Origin: an uncultured Gammaproteobacteria bacterium
Lineage (GTDB): Bacteria > Pseudomonadota > Gammaproteobacteria > CAWCPV01
Assembly: GCA_963797555.1 (NCBI GenBank)
Contig: CAWCPV010000015.1
Coordinates: forward strand, 10,585 to 74,584
DNA: 64,000 nt
Direction: 5' to 3'
A program made the translations under genes and the position numbers. This document shows positions 18,267 through 64,000 of the stretch, in pieces. How positions within the stretch are numbered: position 1 is the first letter of the stretch; every line of letters starts with the position of its first letter. Under the pieces are notes generated by a model that worked only from the letters and a program-made list of their open reading frames with translations, did no database searches and was not told where the DNA came from.

Positions 18267-18295
18267 AGCCGGAGCGCCAAGAACGGAGATCGAGA

Positions 18296-18409: not shown

Positions 18410-18415
18410 CGGGTC

Positions 18416-18443
18416 TTGCGGAAGTGGCTGGAAAGGCTATAAT
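18416..18443 (+). promoter_or_regulatory. Putative alpha-operon promoter
   Basis: TTGCGG - 16 bp - TATAAT upstream of rpsM, the position known from E. coli. Confidence 0.55.
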
Positions 18444-18491
18444 TACAGGTTCGTTGCGTCGGCTAGTCAAGGGTCGAGGGAGATCGGCATA

Positions 18492-18848: not shown

Positions 18849-18859
18849 GGACGGGCGGC

Positions 18860-19249: not shown

Positions 19250-19267
19250 GCTCAGGAGGCTCGATCG

Positions 19268-19894: not shown

Positions 19895-20007
19895 GTCCCG
19901 GAACGGCCGCCGCGGGCGTACCAGAGCCGCCGCGCGCTGGCGCTCCGGCTCAGCATCACTGATGGAGCCGGGGGCCGTCCTTTTCAGGATAGGTGAGGGA
20001 AGTCTCT

Positions 20008-36383: not shown

Positions 36384-36921
36384 GGTATGTCGCGCGTGTC
36401 ATGGGCCGCGGGGTCGTTGCATGCTTGGCCCGAGAGGCTGCCGGTGGGCCTGGAATGCACGAACCCGTGAGCAATGATAACAGCGGGCGGCTGCGAAGCT
36501 GATCCAGACCCTCCCCGTTCATCGCAGCGCACGCGAGGATCTGTGCCGCCGCGGCGGTACGCTGGATCGAAAACCTGGATGAAACGGACCGAGTCGCCAA
36601 GCTAGCCCTGTAAAGCCGGACCGTGGATGGACTGGGAGCTACCGGTATCGGAGAAACCTGCTGCAGCGAGGAGAGCGGAGGGACTGCACCGGCAAAAAAG
36701 GCTCACCCCCTGGCCCTTTCCGGGAACGTCGGCCGTGGTGAAAGAGAAATCGGCGCCGGCCGACCGCATGCGACGCCACAAGCCGTGAGCAGGCGGCGTG
36801 TGCAGCCATGACAGGTAGGGAAAAGAGAGCAGGCCCTTTCCTCGGCGTTCGATACACGACTCGCTGCCCGCATGTTGATGCTTCAATCATCGTGATGACA
36901 GAACATCACCAGGAGTATCCT

Positions 36922-37152
36922 ATGCGCAACACGCTCGACCTGGACGAAGACGCTACCGCGGTAATCATGGAGCTGGCACACACTCACAACTTTTCCATCG
37001 GAAAGGAAGTCTCCCGGCTGGTTCGCGAGGCGCTCCAGGCGCGCCCAGGGGGTCATGGGGAGAGCGTGGCTGGCTTCGAGCCCTTTCCGGCAGAGGGTAG
37101 GCTGGTCACGAACGAGATCATAGACCGTCTGCGCGACCTGGAAGGCGTTTGA
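36922..37152 (+). CDS. Ribbon-helix-helix antitoxin (VapB-like)
   Basis: AGGAG RBS, MRNTLDLDED...VSRLVREAL...VTNEIIDRLRD; overlaps a PIN gene start. Confidence 0.75.
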   Translation: MRNTLDLDEDATAVIMELAHTHNFSIGKEVSRLVREALQARPGGHGESVAGFEPFPAEGRLVTNEIIDRLRDLEGV

Positions 37153-37290
37153 TGCGGGCTCCGCTCGATATCAACGCGTTGATCGCGGTTCTGGATGCCG
37201 CCCACGTGCATCGCCTCCCTGCGCGGGTGTGACCGGCGGGCGGCGATCGCTCACGGCTGGGCCTCCTGCCCGATCACCCAGAACGGCCCC
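37152..37290 (+). pseudogene. VapC/PIN toxin N-terminal remnant
   Basis: [20 protein letters not shown] then stop and frameshift; [11 protein letters not shown]; rest deleted. Confidence 0.7.
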
Positions 37291-37311
37291 GAAAATTCTG
37301 GAGATCTAGTG

Positions 37312-37620
37312 ATGTCTGCCCGCATCGCCGTGCCCCGCGACCATATTGCAGATTTCTGTCGGCGCAACCACATCCGTCGGCTCGCACTGTTCGGCTCGGT
37401 GCTCCGCGAGGACTTCGGTCCAAGAAGCGACGTGGATATCCTGGTAGAGTTCGAGGAGGGCTACACCCCAGGGTTTCTCGGGCTCGCGAGGATGGAGCGG
37501 GAGCTTTCCGAGGTGTTCGGCGGCCGCAAGGTGGACCTGCGCACGCGCGCGGACCTCAGCCGCTATTTCCGCGACGAGGTGGTCGCTGCGGCGGAGCTGG
37601 AGTATGAGACACCAGGATGA
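37312..37620 (+). CDS. Minimal nucleotidyltransferase (MntA-type antitoxin)
   Basis: [19 protein letters not shown]. Confidence 0.9.
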
Positions 37621-37951
37621 AATCCGCCTGCGGCACATGCTGGACGCGGTTCGAGAGGCGATGTCGTTCGCCCGTCATCGAACGAGACAGGACCTCGATG
37701 CGGACCGCATGCTCGTCCTCGCCCTGGTGAAGGACATCGAGATCATCGGGGAAGCGGCGAACAGCATCAGCCAGGAAACCCGCGCCAGGCTGCGCCACAT
37801 CCCATGGCGCGACATCGTGGGCATGCGGAACCGGCTGATCCACGCGTACTTCGATGTCGACTTGGACGTGGTGTGGCAGACGGTGACCAGTGACCTGCCT
37901 GCATTGGAGCCGCTGCTCGTCGACGCACTGGGGACTCCGCCCAACTCGTGA
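37604..37951 (+). CDS. HEPN toxin (HepT/DUF86)
   Basis: [19 protein letters not shown] RxxxxH motif; overlaps MNT gene. Confidence 0.9.
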
Positions 37952-38180
37952 ACCGGGCGTCGTCGACCGGCTCACCTTCGACTCCCCTTACCCGGAGCCG
38001 CGCCAGCACTGGGCAGTACGACCGCGACAGCCGATCCTTCCGCCTGAAGGAAGGGCGGCGCCCCGCGGGTTACGCGTGGCCGCCCCCCGCTCCCGTTCCT
38101 TGGACCACCCGGGCGTCTTCGTCCCCACCCCGCTGGTCAACCGCATGCGGGACCGCGTGCGGGCGTGGCGGCAGGGTCAG
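37948..38180 (+). pseudogene. N-terminal stub of a type III-like restriction endonuclease/helicase (BPTD_3080-like, from memory)
   Basis: VDRLTFDSPYPEPRQHW / DRDSRSFRLKEGRRPAGY / DHPGVFVPTPLVNRMRDRVRAWR across frames. Confidence 0.6.
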
Positions 38181-38612
38181 CCTCAAGCCCGCCAGAGGGC
38201 ATGCCGTGCGAGCAACCAGTGTGGGCTCCGCACGTGGAACCGCGGCAGAAGGATGTGCGCCGACAGCCGGTCCAAGACTCGAGGCGCAGCTCCGTTTGCC
38301 CGTCGGACAGGGCTTTGGGCAAGCGGTGGACCAGGGCCGCTCCGTCGGCCGCTCGCTTGGTCTTCACGGTCATTGGCGTCAGACGCGCCCGAAGCTACCT
38401 CCCATCACCCCGTCGAGTCGCATGCGCTTTCGTAGTTCTGGGACTCTCGGGCCCGCGCCGTTTCCCAATGGGAGTCCCATCTATGGACAGTGCTCCGTTG
38501 CTTGAATCGGCAGGGACGGTACGCCGCAACTGCGGCATGATGAGCGGATCTCGTCAAGTTCGGGGGCTTAAGGATCTGACCCGCAGCCCGGATGCTTGCT
38601 CCGGGTCTCCAC

Positions 38613-38709
38613 CGTCATTCCGGCTGGGAAGCCGGAATCCAGCGGCCACGGACGGCATGGCTCGGCCTCCGTGCGCCTGGATTCCGTACAGTCCCTGTAC
38701 GGAATGACG
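38613..38709. repeat. Palindromic REP-like element (double hairpin)
   Basis: CGTCATTCCGGC..GCCGGAATCCAG ... CTGGATTCCGTAC..GTACGGAATGACG. Confidence 0.65.
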
Positions 38710-38798
38710 AGCTGCGCGTAAGGACGTGGGTTTGACCGGGCGTACGCGACGTGCTGCAATGGAACGCGTGATAAGCGGTTCATCAGGAAGGTCCCGGC

Positions 38799-39305
38799 AT
38801 GAGTGCAGCGCAACGTTTCGTTCCCGATCCGAGAGTCGAGGCCGCCATCGAATTCGGCCTCGGCCTTGAGATCGATGCCCCGTGGGAGACCAATGGACAA
38901 GGACAGATCATCCTGAATCCGCCCATCGGTCTCGCCCACGCCAAGCGTGCCGACCGCATTGCCGTGGCCATCCGGTCGCTCCTGCCCGACTGGCACGTGT
39001 GGTCAGGAGTCGGGATCCATACCGCCGACGGGGTGAAAGCGCCCGATCTGGCCGTCGCTCCCCCGGATTTTGACGAAGCCACGGACTCGCGGGGCTTCCT
39101 CGTCCGCGCACCGGACATCTGCGTGGAGATCATGTCGCCCTCCAATACCTGGGAAGAGATGCGTCACAAGACACTGCTCTATCTGGCCGCCGGGGCGAAG
39201 GAGGTGTGGGTGTGCGACGAAAGCGGGGCGCTGCATTTCTTCGACGGCGCCGGAGAGCGAAGCGCATCGGCCTTGGCCACCGGGATGGCCAGCAGTATCG
39301 GCTGA
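38799..39305 (+). CDS. Uma2 family PD-(D/E)xK endonuclease-fold protein
   Basis: KAPDLAV, APDICVEIMSPSN, YLAAGAKEVW. Confidence 0.9.
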   Translation: MSAAQRFVPDPRVEAAIEFGLGLEIDAPWETNGQGQIILNPPIGLAHAKRADRIAVAIRSLLPDWHVWSGVGIHTADGVKAPDLAVAPPDFDEATDSRGFLVRAPDICVEIMSPSNTWEEMRHKTLLYLAAGAKEVWVCDESGALHFFDGAGERSASALATGMASSIG

Positions 39306-39535: not shown

Positions 39536-41630
39536 CTAGCCGGAAATAAATATTTCTTTCGCGTGGAACTGACTTACTCCAATGTCATCTGTGCCGGACC
39601 ACTTTCCAACAATATCTATGTGTTTTTCTAGGAACTTCAGCTTCTTCCCAGGCCATGGACAGAGTAGATCCTCTGGGTTCTTGGGCGATCCACCCACATA
39701 GACCGATATCTGGCCATGAGTAAAGATAATCCCAATTGTCTTTCCATTGTATTTGGCATCAAAGCCACCCATTCGGTTCCCGCAGCCATTATTACCTATC
39801 GGTGTAACCGTGATCGTCTCAGATTTAGATGGGGTATTGATAGCATGGACAGCCGCTGTGGGCTCGATCACTATAGCAAGCGGACAGGGATTTACGTCAC
39901 AGGCATGCCCCGTCAAGCACTTGTCCCAATCCTTGGATCGAAAATACAAGATGACATGCGCAGATTCTTGTCGCATCGCCCGCCTTCCGGTCTCCCAGTC
40001 GACATCGCCACGGCCGATGCGAAAGTAAAGTTCGTCGTAACTACTGCACATGAAGCCATATTGTGCGTTATTGTCGTCGGCCTTAATGGAGAATGACCAG
40101 AAGCCGCCAGACCCGGATGGTTCTTCGACCGTCGTCATTCTCCCAGACAACGTCATGGTTCCGTGGGCTAGAATCTTGTCGACCTGGCCAGCTTCTTGGT
40201 TCAGCCGAACGCGTTCGGCGATGAGTTGCCGTTTCTCGGCCTCGTTCGCAGCATCATTCTTCTGCACAACCCCAGGTACGCCCTTCTCCGGTGCCCATGT
40301 GGTGGCGTCACGCGGCTTATTGCCAATCGTGTAGATGACTCCGATAACCAATGCCACCAGGACCAGGGCCACGAGGCGCGGCCAAGGGCGTTTGGGCTGA
40401 GGAGGCGTGGGCGTGGGGGGAGGTTTAACAGTCTGCCTTGGTACTGGGCCGGGCGCCGGGCGCGTCGGCTGAGGCTGGGGTTGCGGGGGTGGTTGGGGCT
40501 TCGGTTGCGCGGCGGGTGTGGGCTGCGCAGCCAAGGTAGATACGGTGGTGGGCGGTCGGAATCGGGTTCGCACCACGAGGGGCTCGAGGACCTGGATCCA
40601 CTGCCTGTAGCTCGCCCGGGCGTTACGGCTTATGGCATCCGCACCCTTCCAGAAGGTCGCTTCAAAGGGGCGCTTTAGGGAGTCCTGGGTAGCCGCGTAG
40701 GTCTGGCGGTAGTGGGCGTAGAACTCGCTGTTGTCCGCTTCGAAGTTGTCGTAGGACGGATCGACCTCCGGCCAGCGATAGCGGGAAACATAAGCTTCGA
40801 GTCCCCTCGGACCCAGGACATGGAGGTAGAAGTAGGGGAAGCAAGCAAACAGAAAGTAGTGCACCCCGACCGCCACGGACCAGGTGTCCGTGAGCAGGTC
40901 CACGGTCACAGTGCTCTGCCCGTCGGATGCCTGACTCCGTTGCGCGTTGATCTCTGGCGCCACCCACTCGTCGCCCTTGCCGAAGGTGGTGGGCGCATCC
41001 TCCGGGCGATCGACCACCACCCCGCTGTCATAGTCGATCAGGACCAAGTGCCCATCGGTTCAAATTGACGAACAAATTCGGTGGGTTGACGTCGGCGTGG
41101 ATGTAGTACAGCTCGCGGAGGATGGCGAAGCACTCCGCCAGCTCCAGCGCCAACTGGCGCTTGAGGTTGCTGTCAAGATGCAGGAACTCCCGGAAGCGGT
41201 GGTCCAGGCGGTGGTCCAGGATGTCCTCGAAGCTGGTGAAGTAGCTCGGGTCGAGCCAATGGGCGGCGTACCCCAGCACCGACTGATGACCCAGTTGTCC
41301 TTCGAAGCTGAACTGAGGCAAGGCGTACAGACCCGGAACCGCAGCGAGTGACTTGCCCTCGCGGGCCAGCTCCTCCTGCTTGCTGCGGACCCGTGCCTGG
41401 AGTTTGCGAATCGTCTCGTAGCTGCGCCGGTCGTTGCCTCCCGGGTCGGGCTTGAAGAGCTTGATCACCAGAGCCACCGGCGGGGATGCATTGTTCACCG
41501 CCAGGCATCGGTAAATCTGTCCGAAACCCCCTTCGCTGAAGGGCCGCGCGTCAATCTCGACGGATTGCAACTGCTCCCAGCCAGCCGTGAGACCGCTACT
41601 CTGCGATTGCGTGATTCGAATGGCAGGCAT
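39536..41630 (-). CDS. Membrane Ser/Thr kinase copy A (YegI/TerY-associated type) + Pro-rich linker + TM + unknown extracytoplasmic region; frameshift near 41055
   Basis: EGGFGQIY, VIKLF, HADVNPPN, LIDYDSG, APE, DTWS motifs; TM LVALVLVALVIGVIY. Confidence 0.82.
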
Positions 41631-41637
41631 TACATGG
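40505..41637. repeat. 1,133-bp direct repeat copy 1 (kinase module)
   Basis: Matches 44291-45423 (offset 3786); only one 2-nt difference seen (GAGTCC vs GAGCTC). Confidence 0.92.
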
Positions 41638-41811
41638 AAGGCCGGGGGCCGCCCCTAAGTCCTCTCCTCGTCGGCGCGCGGGCCTATCGGGGCTCCGGGT
41701 GTGCAAGGAGCGGAGTACGGCTTGGTGATCGCGACAGGTGCCTTTCGTGCCGCACTCTGGGAATGGGGAGTCAGGGTGCTTCAGTTCCGGAGATTGGCAA
41801 CTGACCGACAG

Positions 41812-42012
41812 TTACGGGATTCCACGGAGAAGACGAAATACAAACCGAGCCAGCCGAAAGGGCGCCAGAAATAACGCCCTTACTACATACGCCGCCAATG
41901 TGCCAACCATTTCTGCCCACCCCTCTTTTCCTAGGCTGAATCTTCCCAACGCCACCAGCATGACAATCAATATGCCAGCGGCCACGAGTAACGGAAGTGC
42001 AGTTTCCTTCAT
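41812..42012 (-). CDS. Small putative membrane protein (66 aa)
   Basis: Two hydrophobic segments, basic C-terminus, purine-rich upstream; lies between the two kinases on the same strand. Confidence 0.4.
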   Translation of the reverse strand: MKETALPLLVAAGILIVMLVALGRFSLGKEGWAEMVGTLAAYVVRALFLAPFRLARFVFRLLRGIP

Positions 42013-42800
42013 CCCTTCGTCGTCTCCTAACATCCCGTTCATCCGACGCCAGCGGCAACGCAGCGCACGCATCTCCTCGGTTAGCTTCGTCCGGCAATCG
42101 CAATACTGTTTCCCGAAGTGGGAGAGGCCGTGGCCGTTCGCCGGTAACTGCTGCTGTGCGCGCCGCGGGCGGCCGGGTCTGCCAATCCGTCTTCACCGTT
42201 TTTTCTCGTACATGTAACCCGTGCCATTACAATTAGGGCAAGTCTTTTCTTTTCCTGGCCCCAATAAACCATGGTCACGGACGGTCCCTTTGCCGCCACA
42301 TCTTGGACACTCGACCTTCTTTCCAGACATTGGAGGTTCCCTCGCGTGATGAGCGTGTCAAATCCCAATCGCTATGCCCCACTATATCGCTATGCCCCAC
42401 CATAAAGAGACGACGCCTAAAGCTCCAGCAACCGCCGGCCACCCTCCTTCAGCCACCAGCCCAGACGCTCGCCCATCCTGCGCCAGGGTTCCGCAGCCTG
42501 TGCGGGGGGCCACGTAGCTGCGCTGAGGAGGCCTCGATGCTCCGCCGCGCCACGGTGCGAAGTCGATTTGGGCGGGGTCGGCCAGACGAGAAGTTTTATG
42601 AGTGAAGCGCCATCTGAGCTGGAGGTCTGCCGAGACGACCTCCGCAATGTCTCCTCTGCGGCGGGACCCCCTCCGGCCCCGAAAGCCACCGCGGCGATGG
42701 GGAGATGGGCCTCCACTCCCGTGAGCAACGCACTGGCTCCCAACGAGACCGACGACAGGGGAGGGCGACGCGCCAACGCCAGTCGCATTTGTTCACCTTC

Positions 42801-45416
42801 TCACACGTCCGGCCCGAACTTGAAGTTGAACTCCCTGAATGGCTCGAACATGTTGCTATCGGTCGGCACCGGCAACGGGGCCGACCCGCGGATGGCGGCC
42901 AAGGCGGAACGGTCAAACGCATCATTGCCGCTGCTCCGTTCGACCTTCACGTCCGTGACCTCGCCGCCGGGCTGCACGCGGACACGCACCACGCACGACA
43001 GTCCCGGCGGCACGCCGAAAGGTTCCTGCCAGTTCCGTTGGACCGTGGCCCGAATGCGGTCATTATACTGGCTCAGGATATGCTGGGTCTGTCGCACCGG
43101 CTGCCTTGCCAACGACTGCTCCTTGATCCGCCATAGTCGAATACCGCCAGTTTCAGGATTCGAGAAGGCAAAAGTCTTGCTGTCGGGGGCGAAGGCGATG
43201 CGCTTCTGGCAGCACCCAGTTTCCCTGAGGTCAAATAGGAGACGTCCATCAGCTACCCGCCACAAGCGCAGTACGGTTGGCGTGCCAGTGTACTTGTCAT
43301 TGACAATACCCTGATAATAATCTAATAATTGACCGTCGGCGAAGCCCAGGAGCATTGTGCCGTCCGGACTGAAAGCCAGCTCGGTGCCCTCCAGGCGGTA
43401 AGAGCCGGATGGAAGAAAGTCCAATTGATGCAGGCTGCGGCCGTCGCTCATTTGCTGGAGCTCTATGAAGTGCCTGTTGTCGTCATTTCCTCCATGCTGT
43501 TTCCACACGGCGCGGTACCTCCCGCCCGGTGAAACTTGCGCCTGACGCCCTCGCACCCAAGAAATGGAGAAGTCTTTTTCATCCTCTTTCCTGACATCGG
43601 TCAGGCGTCCGTCGCTGAGCCGCCATAGTTGGGTCTCGGTCCGGAACCTGACAGCAATTTCGCGCGCACCCCGGCTGAACCGAATCTCATGGATCTCCTC
43701 ATACGGTCGGTTTACGTCGATGGTATGTGCCAAGCTGCCGTCTGTCGTCCGCCAAAGCTTGATTGTGCTCTTCTGGCCTACCGTAGCCAGTGCAACGAGT
43801 TGTCCGTTGGGACTGTAGGTGAACGCGGTGGGCCGATCCCCGCAAGGGTACCCAGTTTTTGGAGGTAACGAGATGGTAAGAAGAATGCGTCCGCTCGCGA
43901 CATCAAAAAAAACTGGATCCCCAGATTACAACCGTACGCAACAGCCAGGGTGCCCGCGTCGGGACTGAAGGCGAGAGCATCCGCTTCGCCCAGCGTCCTA
44001 AATTGTTTATCGGGTGGCCATGTGGTACTAATGCGCTTCTCAGGCGGTGGTGGAGCGACGCCGGGAGGTTGCATTGGGTACTGTGCCCGGCGCACCGGCT
44101 GCGGTTTATTACCAATTGTGTAGATGACTCCGATAACCAATGCGACCACGACCAAGCCCACGAGGCGCGGCCAAGTGGCTTTGGGCTGAGGAGGTGCTGG
44201 GGTGGGAGGAGGTTTAGGAGTCTGCCTGGGGACTAGGCCGGGCGCGGGCGCCGGGCGGGTCGGCGGAAGCTGAGGTTGTGGGGGCTGGACTTGCGCGGCG
44301 GGTGTGGGCTGCGCAGCCAAGGTAGATACGGTGGTGGGCGGTCGGAATCGGGTTCGCACCACGAGGGGCTCGAGGACCTGGATCCACTGCCTGTAGCTCG
44401 CCCGGGCGTTACGGCTTATGGCATCCGCACCCTTCCAGAAGGTCGCTTCAAAGGGGCGCTTTAGGGAGTCCTGGGTAGCCGCGTAGGTCTGGCGGTAGTG
44501 GGCGTAGAACTCGCTGTTGTCCGCTTCGAAGTTGTCGTAGGACGGATCGACCTCCGGCCAGCGATAGCGGGAAACATAAGCTTCGAGCTCCCTCGGACCC
44601 AGGACATGGAGGTAGAAGTAGGGGAAGCAAGCAAACAGAAAGTAGTGCACCCCGACCGCCACGGACCAGGTGTCCGTGAGCAGGTCCACGGTCACAGTGC
44701 TCTGCCCGTCGGATGCCTGACTCCGTTGCGCGTTGATCTCTGGCGCCACCCACTCGTCGCCCTTGCCGAAGGTGGTGGGCGCATCCTCCGGGCGATCGAC
44801 CACCACCCCGCTGTCATAGTCGATCAGGACCAAGTGCCCATCGGTTCAAATTGACGAACAAATTCGGTGGGTTGACGTCGGCGTGGATGTAGTACAGCTC
44901 GCGGAGGATGGCGAAGCACTCCGCCAGCTCCAGCGCCAACTGGCGCTTGAGGTTGCTGTCAAGATGCAGGAACTCCCGGAAGCGGTGGTCCAGGCGGTGG
45001 TCCAGGATGTCCTCGAAGCTGGTGAAGTAGCTCGGGTCGAGCCAATGGGCGGCGTACCCCAGCACCGACTGATGACCCAGTTGTCCTTCGAAGCTGAACT
45101 GAGGCAAGGCGTACAGACCCGGAACCGCAGCGAGTGACTTGCCCTCGCGGGCCAGCTCCTCCTGCTTGCTGCGGACCCGTGCCTGGAGTTTGCGAATCGT
45201 CTCGTAGCTGCGCCGGTCGTTGCCTCCCGGGTCGGGCTTGAAGAGCTTGATCACCAGAGCCACCGGCGGGGATGCATTGTTCACCGCCAGGCATCGGTAA
45301 ATCTGTCCGAAACCCCCTTCGCTGAAGGGCCGCGCGTCAATCTCGACGGATTGCAACTGCTCCCAGCCAGCCGTGAGACCGCTACTCTGCGATTGCGTGA
45401 TTCGAATGGCAGGCAT
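42801..45416 (-). CDS. Membrane Ser/Thr kinase copy B + Pro linker + TM + WD40-like repeats + TolA/TonB C-terminal domain; frameshifts near 44841 and at T8 tract 43905-43912
   Basis: Same kinase motifs; LAFSPD...IKLW/LRLW repeats; VERSSGNDAFDRSALAAI..SAPLPVP TonB_C/TolA signature. Confidence 0.82.
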
Positions 45417-45423
45417 TACATGG
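44291..45423. repeat. 1,133-bp direct repeat copy 2 (kinase module)
   Basis: Matches 40505-41637. Confidence 0.92.
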
Positions 45424-45510
45424 CGGGCGGGGGGGAGTGGGCCGACCCCGGTTTACGCAGGCCGCTAGGGAGAGATGCCAGGCTAGGCTGTACCATCCCA
45501 GGTCGGAGAA

Positions 45511-46428
45511 TCATTCATCTTGCCGCGGGGGCAAACCCGGGCGCCGCCGCCCAGCCTGGTAACGCACCGTCGGCGCGGTGACGATCACGCCCAAGGACGC
45601 ATCGTCGTCCAGCAAATGCTCGGTCCGGAGCTCGTCGGCATAGGCCCTGAGGGCGGCACTCAAGGCGCCATCGGTCGTGTTCTCGGGCAGGGAGAAGAAC
45701 CCATTGAGCGTGGCGAAGAAACGCAACATCGGGGGTTCCATTTTGATCCATGTGGTACCGTCCTTGGTGCGCCCGACGTTAACCTGATCATGGGAAAAGA
45801 TGCCGTCCGTGCACGTCATCACAATGTCTCCGTACTCAAAGTCTTTGCCCAAGCAGAGAATTGCCGGCTGAGCTTCCTCGTCGCGCGCGGAAATGGAGAT
45901 CATGCGGTACAGTGCCTCTTTGCCCATCTCATTCTGCACTGTGTGTGGGTTGAGGTAGTTCAGAGCGTTCCACGGGGCGTAATGGTTTGGTGAGAGATCG
46001 TTGAAGTTGCCCCGAAGGTGCCAGAGGCCGCCATTGCCCACGTAGCCCAGCCACAACTCCGCCATGCTTTCTACGGCCACGATTAAAGTGGTGCCGAAGC
46101 TCTGCTCGGGGTCCACCTGGATCCCCTCCCGCGCGCAGTACTCTGCCGCCTTCTGCTTGACGTGCACCCGGGCCTGGGCGAAAAGCTGCCGCAGAGTGCA
46201 AGCATCCATGCCCGGTACCCCGGCGATGCTGGCAGCCGCTGCCTCAACTGCCCACTGAGCGCCGAGCCCAGCGTGCGCCTGCGAGCCCAAGCCGTCGGCG
46301 ACAATTACCGCCCGCAGGCCGCACCTCGGATTGTCCGCCGTGGCAACCGCGTCCTGGTTCTCGCTCGGGTCCTTCCTGTAGGTGGTTGAGGCTACGCCTA
46401 TGAGAGAGGAAGGGGACTCCATCTGCAT
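45511..46428 (-). CDS. PP2C-like protein phosphatase (YegK-like)
   Basis: NQDA, VADGLGS, GTTL, VGNG, TDG, DDAS motifs. Confidence 0.85.
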   Translation of the reverse strand: MQMESPSSLIGVASTTYRKDPSENQDAVATADNPRCGLRAVIVADGLGSQAHAGLGAQWAVEAAAASIAGVPGMDACTLRQLFAQARVHVKQKAAEYCAREGIQVDPEQSFGTTLIVAVESMAELWLGYVGNGGLWHLRGNFNDLSPNHYAPWNALNYLNPHTVQNEMGKEALYRMISISARDEEAQPAILCLGKDFEYGDIVMTCTDGIFSHDQVNVGRTKDGTTWIKMEPPMLRFFATLNGFFSLPENTTDGALSAALRAYADELRTEHLLDDDASLGVIVTAPTVRYQAGRRRPGLPPRQDE

Positions 46429-46498
46429 CGCCACTGTCCGCCGCCGCTTAAACACGTCGCTTAACCGGTGATAATGGGGTCGGCATCGAAATCGTGTC

Positions 46499-47157
46499 TC
46501 AGGCGATTTTCACGTTCTTGCCCGAAGAGACCGATTCGATGAAGAATTTCCGCAGGTCTTCGTCCCGGTAAGTGGTCCGGTAGCGCAGAGGCGAACTCGC
46601 CAGATCCTGAAGGAGGGCCTCGGCCTCAGTGTCCTTCTGGCCGACAGCCGCAAAGAGCGTGGTGCACAGGGTGATCTTCAGGTTCTGTTTGACTCCTGTG
46701 CCACCGTTCTGGGGTCGCCGCCGCTCATACCGTCGGACATGACGACGATGACCACGCTGCGGGGCACCGACTCGGTGCTCGATCCCGAGAGAAACTGCTG
46801 CGCAACCCCCTCGGCACAGCGCAAGGCCACCCCAATGTCGGTTCCCCCACCGTGGCCGATCATGGGGTTGTAGTTCGCATAGTCGTCGATGTCCTTAACA
46901 GAGCTCGCCGGAGTGTGGACGGTGGCGCTGGTGTCAAACGTCACTACCGCGATGGAGAAGTTCGACTTCACACGGCTCTTCTTGAGCAGGCCCAACAGTT
47001 CCTTGACAGCCTGCTCCACCATCTGCGCCTTACTGACTTTGCTGGCGGTCATCTCGCCCATGGACCCGCTGCCGTCGAGCACGAGAATACCGAGCTGGCG
47101 GAAGGTGGCGGGCACAACGGGAGGAGCATCAAAGTCTGTGACCAATTGGTCTTTCAT
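46499..47157 (-). CDS. TerY-like vWA domain protein; two frameshifts in 3' third
   Basis: MIDAS DGSGS, GGGTD, VMSDG; continuation KITLCTT...LQDLAS...LRKFFIESVS in shifted frames. Confidence 0.85.
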
Positions 47158-47384
47158 GGGTTTCTCCGAAGAATAGCAAATTCAAAGACTCCAGAAGATA
47201 TTAGCGCCCGCGGGCTCGTGACGCTCTCGGGTCACGTTGCCTGGTTTCTTTGAATCAACGCATTCATTGCTTGTAGGCGCGCGGTATCTTGTAGCATCAT
47301 CGCGTTACGCGTGCAAGCCAGTCAGCAGTCTCGTGTGGATAGCGCAGACGCGGAACGCCCAAGACCGAAACGCCCCGTGCGGCT

Positions 47385-47513
47385 CAGGCCCCAGAAACTC
47401 AGAGCGGCGCCTTGGTCGCTGATGAGATCCGAGAGGTTCTCGATAGCCTCGGACATCCGGTAGTCGTGGACCATCGGATGGAGCTTGCAGGTGTCACGAA
47501 CGGTTCCGAGCAC
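47385..47513 (-). pseudogene. Possible N-terminal stub of a DUF499-like ATPase
   Basis: VLGTVRDTCKLHPMVHDYRMSEAIENLSDLI resembles remembered N-termini of this defence-associated family; unverified. Confidence 0.3.
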
Positions 47514-47634
47514 GTCAACCCCCGAGTTCCAGTGTACACGCCATTGCGCGTGGTTCCTCCGCTCCTGGGGCGGGTCGCCCTCCGTCATCGAGCGATGCGA
47601 TGAATCGTCTGCTGCTGGTCCGCAGTCTTTCGGT

Positions 47635-47760
47635 CGCAGCGCCGCTCACCTGATTGCGCAGCGCACGGCGCTTGAGCCAAATGTCGAGGGTTTCCCGGCC
47701 GCAAGCGAATCCCGCGCAGTCATGGCGATCGGTCAACGGTTCCGGCGCACCGATCGTCAC
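47635..47760 (-). pseudogene. GNAT toxin (TacT/AtaT-like) N-terminal remnant
   Basis: APEPLTDRHDCAGFACGRETLDIWLKRRALRNQVSGA then loss of similarity; overlaps DUF1778 stop. Confidence 0.8.
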
Positions 47761-48047
47761 CCCTTCTCCCAGGGCGGCACGGTCTGCATGGTCTTGCGCA
47801 GCCGCTCGTTGGGTTGCGGCGGGGCCTCGAGCCGTGCCTGGAAGGCGGCGAAGGCTGCGGCGCCAACGCGCAACAGCGCGCGATCGAGCACGGCCTCCTC
47901 GGCGGCCCGACGCGTGGCGTCGAGGATGAACTCGGTGCGGTTCTTGCCCGTAGCGCGGGCGGCACGGTCGATCAGGTCGCGTTCCTCTGGCTTGATACGC
48001 AGGTTGAGGGTCTGGCGCTTGCTGGGTGGTTCGTGGACTGTCGACAT
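47757..48047 (-). CDS. DUF1778 family RHH antitoxin (TacA/AtaR-like)
   Basis: LNLRI...LIDRAA..GKNRTEFILDA...LEAPPQPNERLRK. Confidence 0.9.
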   Translation of the reverse strand: MSTVHEPPSKRQTLNLRIKPEERDLIDRAARATGKNRTEFILDATRRAAEEAVLDRALLRVGAAAFAAFQARLEAPPQPNERLRKTMQTVPPWEKG

Positions 48048-48108
48048 GGCTTCTCTCCGGTTTCCTCCGATACTACCAGCCGCGTAACGACATTGTCACT
48101 ACAGGCGG

Positions 48109-48221
48109 GTACGTCGGGCTGGGCGCGCTTGTGAGTAGCCGGAGTATTTCGATATGAGCCGGCGCGCCGTAAGCCGATGCTTGCCAGGGATGTCGGGTTA
48201 CGCTGCGCTAACCCGACCTAC
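48109..48221. repeat. GTAG-type REP doublet, copy 1
   Basis: GTACGTCGGGCTGG ... GTCGGGTTACGCTGCGCTAACCCGACCTAC; homologous to 49440-49553. Confidence 0.75.
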
Positions 48222-48501
48222 GGCTTGCGCCCCGAGGAGGCTTGGTGGCTGTTCGGCATGACCGCCCTCGCGACGGGCGGCATCAATGATGCGGACAAGG
48301 GTTGGCGGGTTGCGCTGTGCTAGGCGCTGGGCGACGTGGCCCAGAACGGGCTGATCAAGCGGCGGCGCCTGGCGGCGAAGGAGGGGCAGGGCGGGCATAC
48401 GGCACTGCCGTTGTTCGAGGATTGAATTCCTCCAGAGAAGGCAAGATTGACTCGCCTGAGAGTCCCAACCAATATGGTTGCAACCAGCGAGGTATATTTC
48501 C

Positions 48502-48786
48502 ATGCCTTCCCTCACCTTGAAAGACATTCCGATGCCCCTGATGGAACGGCTGCGCGCACGCGCCGCGGAGGATCAGCGGAGCCTGAATCGGGAAGCCATC
48601 TGGCTGCTGGAGCAGGCCCTGGAGCCATCCGGCGATGCCGCGCTGCGTCTGCAGCAAGAATGCGAAGCCCAGGTTGCCGCCTGGAATGCGCTGGCTGGAC
48701 GCTGGCAGGGAACCGAGGAAGAAACGGATGCGGTGGTCGAAGACATCTACCAATCCCGCACCCGGGGTCGAGAGATCACGCTTTGA
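48502..48786 (+). CDS. FitA-like RHH antitoxin
   Basis: MPSLTLKDIP..LMERLRARAAEDQRSLNREAI. Confidence 0.85.
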   Translation: MPSLTLKDIPMPLMERLRARAAEDQRSLNREAIWLLEQALEPSGDAALRLQQECEAQVAAWNALAGRWQGTEEETDAVVEDIYQSRTRGREITL

Positions 48787-49193
48787 AGCTGCTGGATACG
48801 GACGTTTGCATCGAGATCCTGCGCGGCAACCCACGGGTTCTGCAACAGCGCACCGCTATCCCGGACCGGATCGCCACGACCTGGATCACAGCCTGCGAGC
48901 TGGCCTACGGTGCAGCCAATTCCCGGCACCCGAAAGAAAAGCAGACCCTGGTGACGGAATTCCGGTCCACGCTGCCGCTCGTTGACTTCAACCTGGCCAG
49001 CGCACTGCTCTTCGGGAGCCATAAGGCACGCCTGCGTCGGGGTGGAGCGTCCGTCGCGGATGCGGACCTGATGATCGCTTCGATTGCCCTCGCCCACGGT
49101 GCGACCCTGGTCACTGGCAATACCCGTCATTAGGAGCGGTCCGATGGTTTGCTGTTGGAGAACTGGATACGCGAGCCGCCGCGGGAGCGGTAG
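48783..49193 (+). pseudogene. VapC/PIN toxin with in-frame amber stop at 49131-49133
   Basis: LLDTDVCI, ELAYG, DLMIASIA, LVTGNTRH*ERSDGLLLENW. Confidence 0.8.
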
Positions 49194-49246
49194 CGCCCGC
49201 TGCGGGAACCAATCGCCCGCGATGAATCGACCTGCCGACCATACCA

Positions 49247-49396
49247 GTGCGGCTCGAAACATTGCAGGTAAAGCGCGACGCCATCACTGCGGCGGGAAAA
49301 GAGTTCGGTGCCCGACGCATTCGCGTGTTCGGCTCGGCGGCACGCGGGGACCGCCACCTTCGGCCTTATGTGCGGGTGGAGGCCGTAGACCTGTGA
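49247..49396 (+). pseudogene. MNT nucleotidyltransferase N-terminal remnant
   Basis: KRDAITAAGKEFGARRIRVFGSAARGD, truncated before the DxD motif. Confidence 0.7.
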
Positions 49397-49439
49397 GCAA
49401 GCCATGGAGCCCTGCGCACTGCACATTCTCGACAGACGG

Positions 49440-49553
49440 GTAGGTCGGGTTAGGCGCGCTTGCGAGTGGCCGGAGTATTTGGATGGCTGCGACGCGCGCC
49501 GTAACCCGACGCTTGCCGTGGATGTCGGGTTACGCTGCGCTAACCCGACCTGC
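49440..49553. repeat. GTAG-type REP doublet, copy 2
   Basis: GTAGGTCGGGTTAGG ... CGTAACCCGAC ... GTCGGGTTACGCTGCGCTAACCCGACCTGC. Confidence 0.8.
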
Positions 49554-49573
49554 CATCTGCCTCCGTTCGACAC

Positions 49574-50356
49574 ATGAATAGCGACCTGCGCGACCAGAGC
49601 ACCATCCTCGACGCACTGAATCGCCTGGCGTTCCGCCGGCCTCGGTAGCCCTGTACATTGATGCCGATAATCAGTCTCACCAATGCGCGAAGGGACTGCT
49701 GAGCGTGTTTCGGGAGGATCTCGACACCCGCGTCGTTAGCGCCACCATTGCCGGGAACAATCATGGCAAACAGATCGACAGATGGCGCGACGAACTGGTC
49801 GCCGCGCTTCCCGACCTCGTGGTGCACCCGCTCGCCGCGCCTGACCGCAAGCAGGCGGCGGATGTTGCCCTGCTGATGGCGTTGGGGGCTGACCTGGAAC
49901 GGCATATCTGCGAGGGCGAGGTGGTGGTGATCGTTTCCTGGGATGAGCTATTGATCGGCGCCGCCGAACAGATCAAGGCGCGCGGCTGCAGGACCTTGAT
50001 CGCTTACGCGGACGGCGAGATCCCGCCGGCCCGCAATCCACACCTGACGACCCTGCTGCTGCCCGCTTTGGCGAAACCGGTCTCGGTCCCTCGTGCGGCG
50101 CCGGTCGTCGCCCGGCGGCTACCGAGACCGCGCCTGCGCGGCTGCCGGACCGGGCTCCCGACGGCGCCGTCGCGTCGGTGCTCGCACAGCTCGCGGCATG
50201 TGTACGCAGCAGCCGGGTGGGGGCTATGGCGCTTCGGATGTGGGCCAAGCCCTGTCGAAGCTCGGCTACGACAAAGCGGCGCGAGCCCGCTTCCTTGCGT
50301 CGGTGCCTGGCCTCCGTGTGCGCGGCACTGGCCCGAACAAAGTCTTGGAGTTCTGA
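49574..50356 (+). pseudogene. NYN-domain (PIN-like) protein with C-terminal HTH-like domain, frameshifted
   Basis: ALYIDADN, KQAADVAL, IVSWD motifs; C-terminal DVGQALSKLG in another frame. Confidence 0.65.
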
Positions 50357-50639
50357 GACGGTCGAGGAATCCGGCGCCGCACCTAGCCAGTTTCGTCAGC
50401 CGATAACCCAGCAATTCCCGGGGGTAGACGAGATTGTCCAGATGCGATTCGAGCCTCGAAATAACATCCTCAAGACCGTAACGTGGACCTGGCGCCGTGG
50501 AATCTGAAGATCGCCCAACTGCGCGAGACGCGGATGCTCGGGCGCTGGAACGAGCGGTCCATGGAGGCACGAGTCGCTGCTGAACCGGGAGCGCTATCGG
50601 CGCTTGGATGTCTTCTTCGCCAGGGGGGCCAGGCAATCC

Positions 50640-52695: not shown

Positions 52696-54523
52696 TCATG
52701 CCGGCCCGGCTTCCGCCTCGGCTAGCGCGACGGTAGCCGCGATCAGCGACAGGTGGGTGAGGCCTTGGGGAAAGTTGCCGAGCATCTCCCGGCTGCGCGT
52801 GTCGTACTCCTCCGCAAACAGGCTCAGGTCATTGCCGGTGGCGACCGCTTTGCGGAACACCTCATGGGCCTCGTCCACCCTTCCCTGGCGCGCCAGGCAT
52901 TCGACGAGCCAGAAGGAGCAAGCGAGGAACACGCCTTCCCGGCCCGGCAGACCGTCGTCGTCGGGAGCATAACGCCGCAGCAATCCGTCCTCTGCCAGCC
53001 CGGACCGGACCGAGTCCGTGGTGCGGATCATGCGCGGGTCCTGATACTCCACAAAGCCGACGATGGGCAGGAGCAGCAAGGCCGCGTCCATCCGGGGACG
53101 GTCGAAGGCTTGGATGAAGACCCCGCGCTCGCGGCATCGTAGCCCTTCTCTTCCACTGCACGCCGTATCTCGTCGCGGGTGCGCTTCCAGTCCTCTACGG
53201 AGCGTCCCGTCCCAGATCCTCGGCAAGGCGGATCCCGCAGTCCAGCGCCGCCCAGCACATGGCCTTGGACTGGACGAAATGGCGGGGCTCGCCGCGCATC
53301 TCCCAGATCCCGCGGTCGGGCTCGCTCCAGAGCGCGGCTGCAGCGTTCACCAGCTCGACCAGGAATTCCCAGTAGTCGTCGTCCGGCGAGTGCCCCCGCT
53401 GGTGCCAGCGCCAGGCGAGGCCCAGCAGCTCGCCGTAAGCATCGAGCTGGACCTGTCCTTCGGCGGCGTTGCCGATGCGCACGGGCCTGGCGCCGCGATA
53501 GCCCTCCAGCTCCTCTACCGAGTGCTCGTGCAGGCGGCGCTCACCACCGACGCCGAACAGAATCTGCAGCTCCTCGGCGCTTCCGGCGGCGCTGCGCTCG
53601 ATGAAGCGGCGGAATCCGTCGGCCTCCTTCACGTGGCCTAGCTCTGCCAGGGAACGGACGGTGAAGGAGGAGTCGCGGACCCACGTGTAGCGGTAGTCCC
53701 AGTTCCTGGAGCCGCTGGGAGATTCGGGCAGCGAGGTGGTCGGGGCTGCGGCGATGGCCCCGGTGGGCGCGTTGGAGAGCCCCTTGAGAACGATGGCGGA
53801 ACGGCGCGCCAGTTCGGCGTACGGTCCGGCCACTGTGGTCCTGGACGACCAGTGATACCACCAGGCGATGGTCTCTTCCAGACGGCCGTCCAGCACACTG
53901 CTTTCGGGCGGTTCGACCAGCCCCTCGTCCAGGTCTTCCGGAAGGCGATAGAGGATCGAGAGCCGCGCACGGGCCCCCGGCCCGACCCTGAACGCCCCGA
54001 CCAGGTCGTGCCTGTGCTTCATCTCCAAAGGAAAGTCGCCGGAGATGAGCAGGCCGTCCGCGCCGCCGATGGCGATGTAGTGATGGGGGTCGCTGCGCCC
54101 GCGGATCCAGGGCTTGATGGCCCCGTAGTCGAACCGCGGCGCCACCGTGACGTGGAAGTCCACGCTGCCCTCGACGCCCTCCACGATGCGCAGCAGTTGC
54201 CCGTGGGGGTGGTGCTCTCCGCCCCTGCGCATCGGCAGGCAGTCCGTGAGCCGAGCGGAGCCCTGGTCGGTCCGGAACGTCGTCTCCAGGATGAGCGTCT
54301 GAGGAAGGTACTGCCGCTCGACGCGGTACTCTGCGGCGGGCTCAATCTGGCAGTAACCGCCCTCCTGCCAGCCCAGCAGGCGCCCGAAGCAGCTTCGCGA
54401 GTCGATGCGGGGCATGCAGCACCAGTCGATGGAGCCGGCGCGCGAAACCAGCGCCGCAGAGTGACAGTCCGAGAGGTACCCGTAGTCGGCAATCGGCGGG
54501 TAGGGTTCTCGAACGTCGCTCAA
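52696..54523 (-). CDS. Glycoside hydrolase family 15 (glucoamylase/trehalase-like), frameshifted near 53140-53200
   Basis: IAAAPTTSLPE, RNWDYRYTWVRD, QLDAYGE, GIWEMRG, LFAEEYD, GNFPQGLTH. Confidence 0.92.
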
Positions 54524-54538
54524 GTCCGCCTCCCGATC

Positions 54539-56389
54539 TCAGGGCTGCAGGACATAGGTGCCGGGCGCTTCACCGAGGGGAGGCAGGGCGTCGGCCGGCG
54601 CGCCCATGAGGGGAGGCGTCACCCGTTCCGAGGAGTGAGCGGCGAGCCAAGCGGTCCAGGCAGGCCACCAAGAGCCCTCGGAGCTGGCTACCGACGCTGC
54701 CCATGTTTCGGGGTCCACATAATGCTCGCCTTCACGGCGCGTGGTCATTTGGTAAGTTCTCCCCGGATGCCCCGGCTCGCTGACGATGCCGGCGTTGTGA
54801 CCCCCGCTGGTCAGCACGAAAGTGATCTCTTCGGCGTCCGCCAGCAGGTGGATCTTGTAGACCGAATGCCAGGGCGCGACGTGGTCTTTTACCGTTCCAA
54901 CCACGAACAGCGGGGCACGGATGTCGCTCAGCGCTACCGGGCGTCCCTCCACCTCGTAGCGGCCTTCCGCCAAATCGTTGTTGAGGAAAAGCTTTCGCAG
55001 GTACTCCGAATGCATGCGGTAAGGCATGCGGGTGAGGTCGGAATTCCACGCCATCAGGTCGAACATCGGCTGTCGCCGGCCGAGCAGGTAATCCCGTACC
55101 AGGCGGGACCAGATCAGATCGTTGGAGCGCAGGAACTGGAACGCTCCCGACATTTGCCGGGTGTCCAGGTAGCCCTGGTCCCACATCAGATCCTCCAGGT
55201 AGCTCACCTGACCCTCGTTGATGAAGAGCATCAGCTCCCCCGCCTCGGTGAAATCCGTCTGGGCCGCCAGCAGGGTGACGGTCCTCAGGCGACGGTCTCC
55301 GTTGCGGGCGAGGGTTGCGGCGGCGATGCTTAGAAGTGTGCCGCCCAGGCAGTATCCCACCGCATGCACGGCGCGACCGGGCAGCACGTCTGAACTGCGT
55401 CCAGAGCGGCGACGATCCTCAGTCCGCGATAATCCTCGAGGCTGAGGTCCCGATCCTCAGCGCTCGGGTTTTTCCAGGAGATCATGAACACGGTATGGCC
55501 GGCGTCGACCAGGAACTTCACCAGTGAGTTGTGGGGGGACAGATCCAGGATGTAGTACTTCATGATCCAGGCCGGGACGATGAGCACCGGCTCGGTATGG
55601 ACCGTATCGGTCGTGGGGGCATACTGGATCAGCTCGATCAGGCGGTTGCGGTAGATGACCTTGCCCGGGGTCACGGCCAGATCCCGCCCTGCCCGGAAGT
55701 TCTCGGCCCCCGCCGGCCTCTTGGCGCCGCCCGCCCGCTCCCAGTCCTCCAACAGGTTCATCCAGCCGCGCACCAGGTTCATGCCGCCTTCGCGGAAGGT
55801 CGCTGCGAGGACTTCCGGGTTGGTGAGCGGAAAGTTGGACGGTGACAGCACGTCGAGATACTGGCGCGTCATGAACGACACCACGTCCTCGCTGTGCTTC
55901 GCCACCCCCCGCACCCCGGTGGTGGCGTTGTGCCACCATTGCTGGCCGAGCAGGAAGGACTGATGGACGAGGTTAAAGGGAAAGACTTTCCAAGCCGGGT
56001 CCGCGAAGCGGTGGTCCTGGGGGAGCGGCTCGATGCAGGGGGGTATCCCCAGGCCGCACCGCGGACTGGGCAGCGTACAGCCCGAAGCGTAGTGCCTTGC
56101 GCAGCCCTTTCGCGACGAGCTGCGTTTGCTTGCCGGGCGAAACGGCGAGGTGCACCAGCCAGTCCAGGTAAGCCATGGAGAGCACCGCCGGCGACATGCC
56201 CAGGGTCAGCCGGGCCATGCCCGCGCTCAGGGCTCGGTCCACGATCTCGGACCCGTAGGACTGGTCCGGGTCCGGCGGCGGTGACCCGTCGTGGGGAATG
56301 GCACGGGCGCGCGGCTGCGGCTGCCTGGTCGGGGAGCCCGCCTTGGCAGCGTCCGGCCGCACGGTCTCCGACGCAGTATCGGTAATCAT
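54539..56389 (-). CDS. phaC: Polyhydroxyalkanoate synthase, frameshifted
   Basis: SPSNFPLTNPE, TPGKV, PAWIMKYYILDL, lipase box GYCLGG, DHVAPW, GGHNAG spread over three or more frames. Confidence 0.9.
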
Positions 56390-56420
56390 TGGATATTACC
56401 CCCTCGGCCGGGCGGGCATC

Positions 56421-58970: not shown

Positions 58971-59758
58971 TTGGGTATTGGGTTCGGGCCTCGATGCGCT
59001 GTGCGGCGCGATCCTGAGGTGCAACCGGCGTTGATGGCAGTCAACCGGCCACAGCATCTTCTATCGCCAACCGGGGAACTCCCTGCCGATGCCGGCCGTT
59101 TGCCGGTGACCGAACCCCGTGCCCCGCTACGGGGGCTTCCCCCGGAAAGCACCGCCTCACGCCGATCGCTCTCCTGGACCGGCCGCAACCCCCGGCTGCC
59201 CTGGGCCGGTTCAGCCGGCCTCCGGCACCGAAATACGCCCCCCGACCCGTCTCACCCGCGCGTTGACCGGTCCGTACGCACGGACTACCCTTCCTCTACG
59301 CCAGAGGCGGTTGCTTTTCCTAGTCTTTTGAGTGGCCGCATGGCCGGGCGGCAGTCGCCGACCAAGGTCCGAGAATCGGCCATTTCCGGCCCTTCGGGAC
59401 TTCGCGGCCCAGCGGCAGGTCCACTCTGGAAGCGGTCATACGGGGGCAGAGAGTGGTCGTCTGGGTGCCGCCCGAGCCTGGTGGTAAACGTCATTGAAGT
59501 ACAACCCCGACGGTCCCACCCGATGGACAGACCCGAAGTACGTATCGCGAATGCTGCCGACATTCTCTCCGTGAGCAGGGGCTCCCCAACCTCCTTGCAT
59601 AGGTGCAGTAATCGCCGCTCTCCCAGCCACTGAACGTCCCTTTCACCACGCAGACTCGCAAGAGCTGAGTGCCATGCTAACCTTTAGGATGAAGGGTTAG
59701 AAAAAGGAACGTTCGCGGTTTGCACATGCGCTCTGCGCAGAGAGCGAGGAGGTAGCTG

Positions 59759-62440: not shown

Positions 62441-62659
62441 CTTGCTCCCCAGGCGGTGGCCCGCTACAGTGCGCCTATCTACCCCCGTGTTGGCTCCAAG
62501 TCCGACAGCCTCCTAGGGCCTTGTCCCTTCGAAACCCGTTGCTGCGGTTGAGCGTGAATCGGGAAGGTTGGCATCCTCAATTCTCGAAGGTTCGGTCGTG
62601 GTCGCGGTACTCTAGCAAGTAAAGCCACTTCCCCGTCGTATCACACTGAGCATACGAAA

Positions 62660-63890: not shown

Positions 63891-64000
63891 CGGCGGCCGA
63901 CGTGCGAGACGGTACGCCTAGCGACCCCACTCGGCACGTGGGCCATGCCGTGATCACGCTCGAAGGCCAGGACCTCGTGGCGGTCCTTGGCAAACCACGA

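Follow-up and report, generated by a model that had tools for sequence, protein, structure and literature searches.

This locus raises the question of whether a bacterial phosphorylation switch normally built around one kinase can be coupled to sensors outside the cytoplasm, and whether it still works in the genome where it was found. It lies in a stretch of 64,000 nucleotides (hereafter the window) from an uncultured Gammaproteobacteria bacterium (GenBank assembly GCA_963797555.1, contig CAWCPV010000015.1), in which a cassette of four co-oriented genes on the minus strand at 39536-47157 encodes a vWA-domain protein, a PP2C_2 phosphatase and two Ser/Thr kinases, here called kinase A and kinase B. 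A first-pass annotation, made from the DNA letters, had described the locus as a TerY-P triad (vWA, phosphatase and kinase) expanded into two receptor kinases with different outside domains and embedded in a defence island. In this study, the four co-oriented genes were recovered as open reading frames (ORFs) with VWA_2, PP2C_2 and kinase-homolog matches, and the domain matches agree with a TerY-P-like gene content to which a second kinase has been added. We consider it rather probable that the cassette is a vWA-PP2C-kinase phospho-switch of a rare family, with two paralogous receptor kinases, and that it is most likely dead or dying in this genome.

The vWA gene (46499..47157, minus strand) encodes a TerY-like protein with a MIDAS-type DxSxS motif (VWA_2, E 1e-10). 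The PADLOC model of TerY matches this protein weakly (E 5e-4, residues 32-86 only) and does not match the intact vWA orthologs of Hymenobacteraceae, and the protein aligns to the vWA protein of a Hymenobacter triad (locus L007) with 39% identity (E 1e-30). The phosphatase (45511..46455, minus strand) is a 314-aa ORF with a likely ATG start at 46428, where its tblastn alignment also begins, and it is the sole intact gene of the cassette. It matches PF13672 at E 2.2e-16 (60.5 bits, cut-off 24) and aligns over its full length to the PP2C protein of the same Hymenobacter triad with 35% identity (E 2e-50). Kinase A (42801..45416, minus strand) consists of a Ser/Thr kinase head, a Pro-rich linker, one transmembrane (TM) helix, a WD40-type propeller and an end resembling TolA domain III, spread over three frames in pieces at 44814-45416, 43778-44833 and 42801-43925. 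Kinase B (39536..41630, minus strand) has the same head, linker and TM helix followed by two beta-barrel domains, D1 and D2, in two pieces of different frame at 41028-41630 and 39536-41047.

The kinase domain is not contained in one open frame, both copies being split after the catalytic loop, and the pieces searched singly against Pfam gave no match. Across the pieces the Hanks-type domain is complete and 57-60% identical to intact relatives by tblastn, with the Gly-loop, the VAIK-type Lys, the HxD..N catalytic loop, the DYD motif (DFG-equivalent) and the APE motif all present. The family-invariant columns G35, G38, K58, D177 and D196 are also kept when the pieces are aligned to two intact relatives (P0001 and P0002). 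A crude Kyte-Doolittle hydropathy scan predicts one TM helix in each kinase, at 44111..44179 in kinase A (hydropathy window at residue 219 of the middle piece) and at 40322..40390 in kinase B (hydropathy window at residue 220 of the 503-aa piece), both on the minus strand, and a further 250-430 residues follow it. The topology suggested by the first-pass annotation is thereby reproduced, and the TM motif which it had quoted is present in both copies.

Comparison of the two kinase genes by BLASTN gave 96.9% identity over 1339 nt, and this identity is distributed in an uneven way. A tract of 1133 nt, which begins 7 nt ahead of the start codon and ends within the linker (44291..45423 in copy A and 40503..41637 in copy B, minus strand), is identical at 1131 of 1133 nt in a position-by-position alignment, the sole differences being two adjacent bases. 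The following ~190 nt, which encode the Pro-rich linker and the TM helix, are ~85% alike, with indels that cancel so that both frames stay open, and beyond the TM helix the sequences do not align and the tails are unrelated. Alignment thus supports the earlier description of two kinases that share a catalytic module, a Pro-rich linker and a TM helix and then diverge. This mosaic fits a history in which gene conversion recently homogenised the heads of two old paralogs, and it does not fit a fresh whole-gene duplication. A shufflon-like switch of heads and tails was considered and rejected: both genes are complete and in direct orientation, and recombination between directly oriented heads would only delete the tail of kinase A.

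The tail of kinase A begins with a WD40-type propeller, 26-32% identical to WD40 proteins, and ends in a domain like the C-terminal domain (domain III) of TolA (42804..43121, minus strand; TonB_2, E 3e-19), with 33.6 bits against PF06519 (cut-off 25) and 69.3 bits against PF13103 (cut-off 22). The last 105 residues of kinase A share 59% identity (E 8e-42) with the corresponding domain of the TolA encoded by the same genome, in an intact ybgC-tolQ-tolR-tolA-tolB-pal-cpoB cluster. The TolA ends found in databases are only 45-50% identical to it, so the TolA-like domain was probably copied within this lineage. No protein of 205-655 aa combining such a propeller with such an end was found in the database by a search restricted to near-length proteins, and the propeller showed no significant similarity to the TolB of the genome (E 0.017). 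In complex prediction, the TolA-like end with the N-terminal part of mature TolB scored 0.51 against 0.00 for the best control, with runs agreeing in at least 93% of contacts and a partner pLDDT of at least 77. Of 78 solved complexes 51 reach the mark applied, as do 2 of 108 mismatched pairs, and passes at 0.60 or under comprise 5 of those 78 solved complexes and all 4 passing mismatches. TolA-TolB complexes have been solved, and therefore a pass shows likeness at most; the prediction lends weak support to binding of the TolA-like end to the TolB N-terminus.

The tail of kinase B folds confidently into two small barrels (AlphaFold2, pLDDT 86). D1 (39848..40255, minus strand) is a Cys-rich outside domain of no known family: it matched no Pfam family, its best score in the ESM Atlas was 0.85, under the threshold of 0.9 for a meaningful match, and Foldseek paired it with tandem-OB proteins (E 1e-5 to 1e-3), though at low TM-scores. 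Stretches corresponding to D1 (within residues 225-416 of the query) were matched in P0020-P0023, P0053 and other proteins, and elsewhere the domain comes after a TM helix in proteins with J-domain, Sel1 or other kinase heads. D2 (39539..39838, minus strand) is an OB-like five-stranded barrel which occurs elsewhere in small proteins with signal-peptide-like starts (P0030, P0050, P0104, P0135 and P0157). VIA-align superposed 78 of its residues on an SSB-type OB domain (Z 8.6, root-mean-square deviation 2.9), the best of the matches but one of many that tie; models that have no true match usually reach Z 7-8, and 8.6 lies within the common range.

The best support for modularity came from a third paralogous gene in the same genome (G000, contig C7, locus L017, about C7:324282-327614, minus strand), in which a Sel1-repeat head is joined to the same Pro-rich linker and TM helix, D1 and a tail. 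This gene shares 84.8% identity with kinase B over 623 nt and 81.6% with the linker and TM helix of kinase A over 147 nt; no fewer than 5 frame changes are required to read through it, and one of the D1 matches (P0021) is a piece of it. The reuse of the linker-TM cassette with another head marks this joint as a recombination point at which heads and tails were exchanged.

Relatives of the kinases were collected by an exhaustive protein search with the 503-aa piece of kinase B, which returned 309 matches at E 1e-3, 174 at 1e-10 and 15 at 1e-30, including the two products of the window and proteins matching D1 or D2 only. P0001-P0007, the seven closest relatives, share 50-60% identity with the head in the window, and all seven have the head, the linker, one predicted TM helix and differing tails, in agreement with the proposed single-pass receptor with a constant head and varying outside parts. 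Among the 75 of 140 kinase-type matches covered by a Pfam scan, 72 matched Pkinase (PF00069) and four carried FGE-sulfatase tails, the other tails being unmatched to known kinds; in a PDB profile search the relatives gave strong matches by their FGE-sulfatase tails and only a weak one by the kinase head (TNNI3K, E 3e-7). Tails were cut from the 80 of these 140 proteins with the motif used for the cutting, the other 60 being dropped, and fell into 22 BLAST clusters, the largest of which (47 proteins) has Ig-like repeats and lacks a TM helix. A crude hydropathy count found no TM helix in 58 of the 80 tails, one in 19 and two in 3, and the receptor plan is therefore a property of the subfamily in the window and not of the whole family. 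The kinase head was found in none of 60 class-level relatives, in none of 400 sampled genomes of the phylum (E 1e-25) and in 2 of 151 genomes of Hymenobacteraceae, the family of the Hymenobacter match. As judged from these searches the kinase family is rare and horizontally scattered, and its absence from the 60 relatives and 400 phylum genomes leaves no close strain with which the lesions described below could be compared.

Eight homologous loci, located with the seven closest sequences, were inspected for gene context. Triads were present at two of the eight, both in Hymenobacteraceae (L007 and L021), each with one kinase and thus in accord with the earlier statement that such triads normally have a single kinase; these kinases are without a TM helix. 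After both of these intact triads come a conserved gene of 180 aa and a membrane/coiled-coil gene with DUF4407, which has 630 aa in L021 and seems to be split in L007. These two loci possibly hold a five-gene cassette with the last gene as a possible output; its five genes gave no system match in PADLOC. The occurrence of the triad in Hymenobacteraceae marks it as a conserved unit that crosses phyla. The six loci that are not triads adjoin ABC transporter, SbcC-like or MoxR-like genes. Three of them, in Thiotrichales/Gammaproteobacteria, lie beside a peptide ABC transporter; two are of Bacteroidia type (L006 and L009) and one further locus is from Bacteroidia. In L006 and L009 a protein of 778 aa connects the head through one TM helix to a WD40 propeller of the seven-blade type, which is the plan of kinase A minus the TolA-like end. 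A metagenome scan had yielded only one further locus, which is not a triad. When the window is counted, two kinases occur at one of nine loci, the window itself.

From this domain content and the TerY-P literature, a mode of action may be proposed. A periplasmic module would sense an envelope or periplasmic cue, the sensor of kinase A being the propeller together with a paralog of the cell's own TolA domain III, and that of kinase B the two OB-like barrels. The signal would pass through the single TM helix and the Pro-rich linker to the Hanks-type head, which would phosphorylate targets in the cytoplasm, the TerY-like vWA protein probably among them, and the PP2C phosphatase would reset the switch by reversing the phosphorylation. 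Different tails may have been assembled onto the head by shuffling at the reusable linker-TM cassette. In this genome, such a phospho-switch is most likely inactive.

Three of the four genes are broken, the vWA gene by one frame change, kinase A by two and kinase B by one. In the vWA gene, three-frame translation and tblastn place a -1 frame change between 46726 and 46675 (minus strand): residues 10-143 of the L007 vWA protein align to 47124-46726, and residues 163-222 align to 46675-46502 in a different frame. Kinase A has one extra C at 44843..44844, between the HAD..N catalytic loop and DYD, and kinase B has the same extra C at 41057..41058 (both minus strand). When the relative P0001 was aligned by tblastn, its residues 1-188 ended at 44844 (frame -3) and residues 188-350 started at 44845 (frame -1) in kinase A, and residues 1-188 ended at 41058 and residues 189-350 started at 41056 in kinase B; in both copies the segments abut with a one-base offset and zero residues missing. 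Intact relatives read from the catalytic loop to the DFG-equivalent stretch in a single frame. The second frame change of kinase A falls in a run of 8 T on the coding strand (43905..43912, minus strand) within the first propeller blades, where the WD40 homolog P0162 matches 43990-43937 in one frame and 43844 onward in another. With these lesions, neither kinase would be made whole without frameshifting. The same lesion was most likely put in both kinases by gene conversion, or by a very recent duplication of the head.

The str-S10-spc-alpha ribosomal block of the window (3519-21018, 17.5 kb, from rpsL to rpoA with fusA, tuf and secY), which served as an internal control for assembly accuracy, is complete and unbroken, and IleS, LeuS, ValS, GyrA and DnaE, encoded elsewhere in the genome, have uninterrupted frames of 1021, 848, 916, 858 and 1190 aa. 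Elsewhere in the window, four genes outside the cassette are split by 5 frame changes: a gene for CHASE2 with adenylate/guanylate cyclase (1387-3215), a glycoside hydrolase 15 gene (52699-54538), the PHA synthase gene phaC, split twice into three pieces (54542-56395), and an MFS transporter gene (62558-63997). There are thus 9 frame changes in the other 46.5 kb of the window and none in ~32 kb of housekeeping sequence, where ~6 would be expected if errors fell evenly (Poisson P ~0.002, for genes chosen post hoc). DDE_Tnp_1 was also matched 95 times in the genome, many of the matches forming groups of identical copies. This indicates an expansion of insertion sequences (IS), and the expansion favours decay as it fits relaxed selection. 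Because housekeeping genes are intact, other accessory genes are split, transposases are abundant and the paralog on contig C7 is broken, we hold that the lesions are fairly probably real mutations. A silent locus with real lesions, the outcome that the first-pass annotation had set against its own proposal, is thus what we probably have in this genome, given frameshifts in three of the four genes, broken accessory genes and whole housekeeping genes. A locus decaying in this manner would illustrate clearly how gene conversion can pass an inactivating mutation from one paralog to another.

The surroundings of the cassette contain toxin-antitoxin-type genes at 36742-39302 and 47325-50403. These include MNT/HepT (37183-37948) and Uma2 (38775-39302) on one side and, on the other, a TacA-like antitoxin (47760-48095) with no GNAT toxin frame detectable beside it, an RHH and PIN pair (VapBC-like, 48460-49130) and an NYN-domain gene (49582-50403). 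PADLOC reported the candidate families PDC-S09 and PDC-S03 only, and domain and PADLOC scans of the window found no known defence system; what the earlier description called a defence island consists of toxin-antitoxin modules and two candidate families. The spacer between kinases A and B is 1.17 kb long and contains two small ORFs of doubtful reality (41812..42330, minus strand): one of 45 aa with two CxxCxGxG motifs of the DnaJ zinc-finger type (42196-42330) and one of 86 aa with one hydrophobic helix by hydropathy (41812-42072), neither of which matched Pfam or PADLOC. A scan for promoters and terminators returned sites that did not exceed those in shuffled sequences, none usefully placed on the coding strand, and a tRNA scan of the window returned none. 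The G+C content is slightly lower around the cassette (0.60-0.63) than in its flanks. Farther along the window, a P-type ATPase ORF (57231-59060) shows the N-terminal and actuator domains only.

Several points weigh against a cassette that is dead or dying, and most of them would be expected if the frame changes were consensus or polishing errors of a long-read metagenome assembly and the cassette were an intact, working two-sensor switch. The assembly is probably long-read based, as it consists of 20 contigs with resolved IS copies, and polishing within a 1.1-kb repeat could copy the frameshift of one copy onto the other, so that an identical lesion in both kinases is what repeat-confused polishing would leave. 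One lesion sits in the T8 homopolymer. The broken frames are otherwise clean, with zero internal stops and all catalytic motifs kept, and the decay must therefore be either very recent or an artefact. Completeness is 84.6% and rpoB (PF00562) was not found in the assembly, which is thus imperfect. A search of public sequencing runs returned one DNA run containing 5% of the sampled words, with no RNA run listed; its three contigs of 151-202 nt match the window at 100% identity (40274-40475, 41141-41291 and 44230-44380), and none of the three covers a frame change. In addition, no member of the kinase family has a known substrate, ligand or phenotype, and the mode of action proposed above is drawn from domain content and published accounts of TerY-P triads. 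Against an origin by polishing, random indels should strike housekeeping genes too and the contrast between housekeeping and other sequence is not of that kind, the kinase lesion sits in a CC dinucleotide and not in a long homopolymer, and the genome has both an IS expansion and a paralog with at least 5 frame changes; we therefore regard assembly error as unlikely, though a serious alternative to decay. If the shared +1 site were instead a programmed ribosomal frameshift, full-length kinases would be made, and the conservation of the same site in both copies agrees with this. Yet all inspected relatives read the stretch in a single frame, and identical sites are expected where one conversion tract covers both copies. 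Frameshifting of the prfB type uses a stop and a slippery pattern, and the sequence here has no pattern of that kind, which makes this explanation scarcely credible. It is also highly improbable that the second kinase is a falsely duplicated repeat, as might be suspected from heads that are 99.8% identical. Each head continues into its own diverged linker and TM helix and then into an unrelated tail with homologs of its own, and each copy has its own upstream DNA. Contigs of the public run, which looks independent, agree at 100% identity with the linker of A and with that of B, and one of them extends across the A boundary at 44291, although this run may be the source sample itself. Misassembly of the duplication, against which the first-pass annotation had warned, is accordingly not a likely source of the second kinase.

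The remaining alternatives accept the cassette as a phospho-switch and differ on its purpose. A defence role is possible, if not supported directly, and the specific proposal of an anti-phage (or anti-colicin) TerY-P-type system with an expanded sensor repertoire seems improbable to us. Its gene content does equal that of the TerY-P triad as given in passages of PMC11090510 and PMC7699616, its distribution is sporadic and mobile-looking (as in the genome counts above), and its neighbours are toxin-antitoxin modules. The TolA-like end would moreover be a plausible bait for agents that use TolA, such as colicins and filamentous-phage proteins. Against this proposal, the four kinase pieces did not match the PADLOC model STK_OB and no phosphatase model was matched either, leaving the TerY match at E 5e-4 as the single contact with that system; STK_OB was touched by 2 of 8 intact homologs at E 0.0026-0.0052, over ~45 residues of the catalytic core only. 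By these model searches the kinases of the window are not of the validated anti-phage TerY-P (STK-OB) family, to which the first-pass annotation had linked them. Six of the eight homologous kinase loci are not triads, domain matches within the cassette revealed no nuclease, restriction or other effector gene, and the genes are broken here. A related proposal, which we also think improbable, is that the two proteins are guard receptor kinases of an undescribed class, in which a constant Hanks-type head is placed on periplasmic baits through the reusable Pro-rich linker and TM helix. The paralog of TolA domain III would then serve as a bait reporting the state of Tol-Pal, via TolB or CpoB, or alternatively the arrival of colicins or filamentous-phage proteins that parasitise TolA, and the signal would switch the vWA/PP2C phospho-module on. 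If the frame changes were assembly errors, such a system would be live in this organism.

Even as a probably decaying phospho-switch, the locus bears on a wider problem. The triads of vWA, PP2C and kinase are widespread, their inputs and targets are unknown, and the validated phage-defence member uses a soluble kinase. The present locus suggests that receptor kinases with outside parts exchanged at a constant linker-TM joint can drive a triad of this kind, and its TolA-derived part suggests a concrete input, either the state of Tol-Pal or agents that hijack TolA. Its value is limited by the probable death of the cassette here and by the want of any family member with a known phenotype.

TerY-P was reportedly first described by Anantharaman, Iyer and Aravind in 2012. 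At the domain level, TerY-P triads are defined by adjacent, co-oriented genes for vWA, PP2C and a Ser/Thr kinase, all of which are present in the window, and they share with our cassette the gene content and the proposed phosphorylation switch. According to passages in PMC11090510 and PMC4978471, the three co-oriented genes of these triads encode a vWA protein of the TerY kind, a PP2C-like phosphatase and a Ser/Thr kinase, the kinases described there are soluble, with a zinc ribbon (CoCoNuT-linked) or an OB fold at their end, and the triads adjoin tellurite-resistance or DNA-processing/restriction genes. In contrast, the cassette encodes two kinases, both of which have a TM helix and a domain outside, and the window showed no module of the Ter, McrBC, helicase or nuclease kind. 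The anti-phage TerY-P system of Gao et al. 2020, as outlined in parts of PMC11090510 and PMC7699616, comprises a vWA protein, a phosphatase and a kinase. Kinase B likewise ends in OB-like barrels, but these lie beyond the TM helix and are therefore presumably outside the cytoplasm.

In Escherichia coli, YegL, PphC (YegK) and YegI likewise unite a vWA protein, a PP2C_2-type phosphatase and a membrane Ser/Thr kinase in one neighbourhood, and the first-pass annotation had assigned our cassette to this type. YegI was aligned to the head in the window by hhalign with a probability of 94.6% (E 7e-8, 282 columns, 20% identity), the alignment taking in the helical extension after the kinase domain, and YegI thus appears to be a distant relative only, sharing the kinase fold and this extension. 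The portion of bioRxiv 10.1101/819920 that deals with its topology describes YegI as two-pass, with both ends inside and without an outside sensor. The kinases of the window are single-pass with an outside part, and E. coli has one kinase. PphC and YegL showed no significant BLASTP similarity to the window proteins (E 0.023 and 0.007, respectively).

The layout of the two kinases is shared with the PASTA receptor kinases. In PknB, PrkC and StkP a cytoplasmic head is followed by one TM helix and outside ligand-binding repeats, and a PP2C phosphatase is encoded nearby. The cassette differs from these in its outside parts, which are a propeller with a TolA-like domain and D1 with D2, in its vWA partner and in having two near-identical heads. 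While the end of kinase A resembles TolA domain III in identity and in its matches to the Pfam families TolA and TonB_2, it is joined to a kinase via a propeller and not to a TolQR-coupled stalk. No published TolA-domain kinase or two-kinase triad turned up in the titles and passages covered; membrane-bound variants might already be among the TerY-P kinase architectures tabulated in the supplement of PMC11090510. What is new here, in comparison with these systems, is thus a receptor-kinase, two-sensor version of the vWA-PP2C-kinase triad, one that is probably decaying in this genome.

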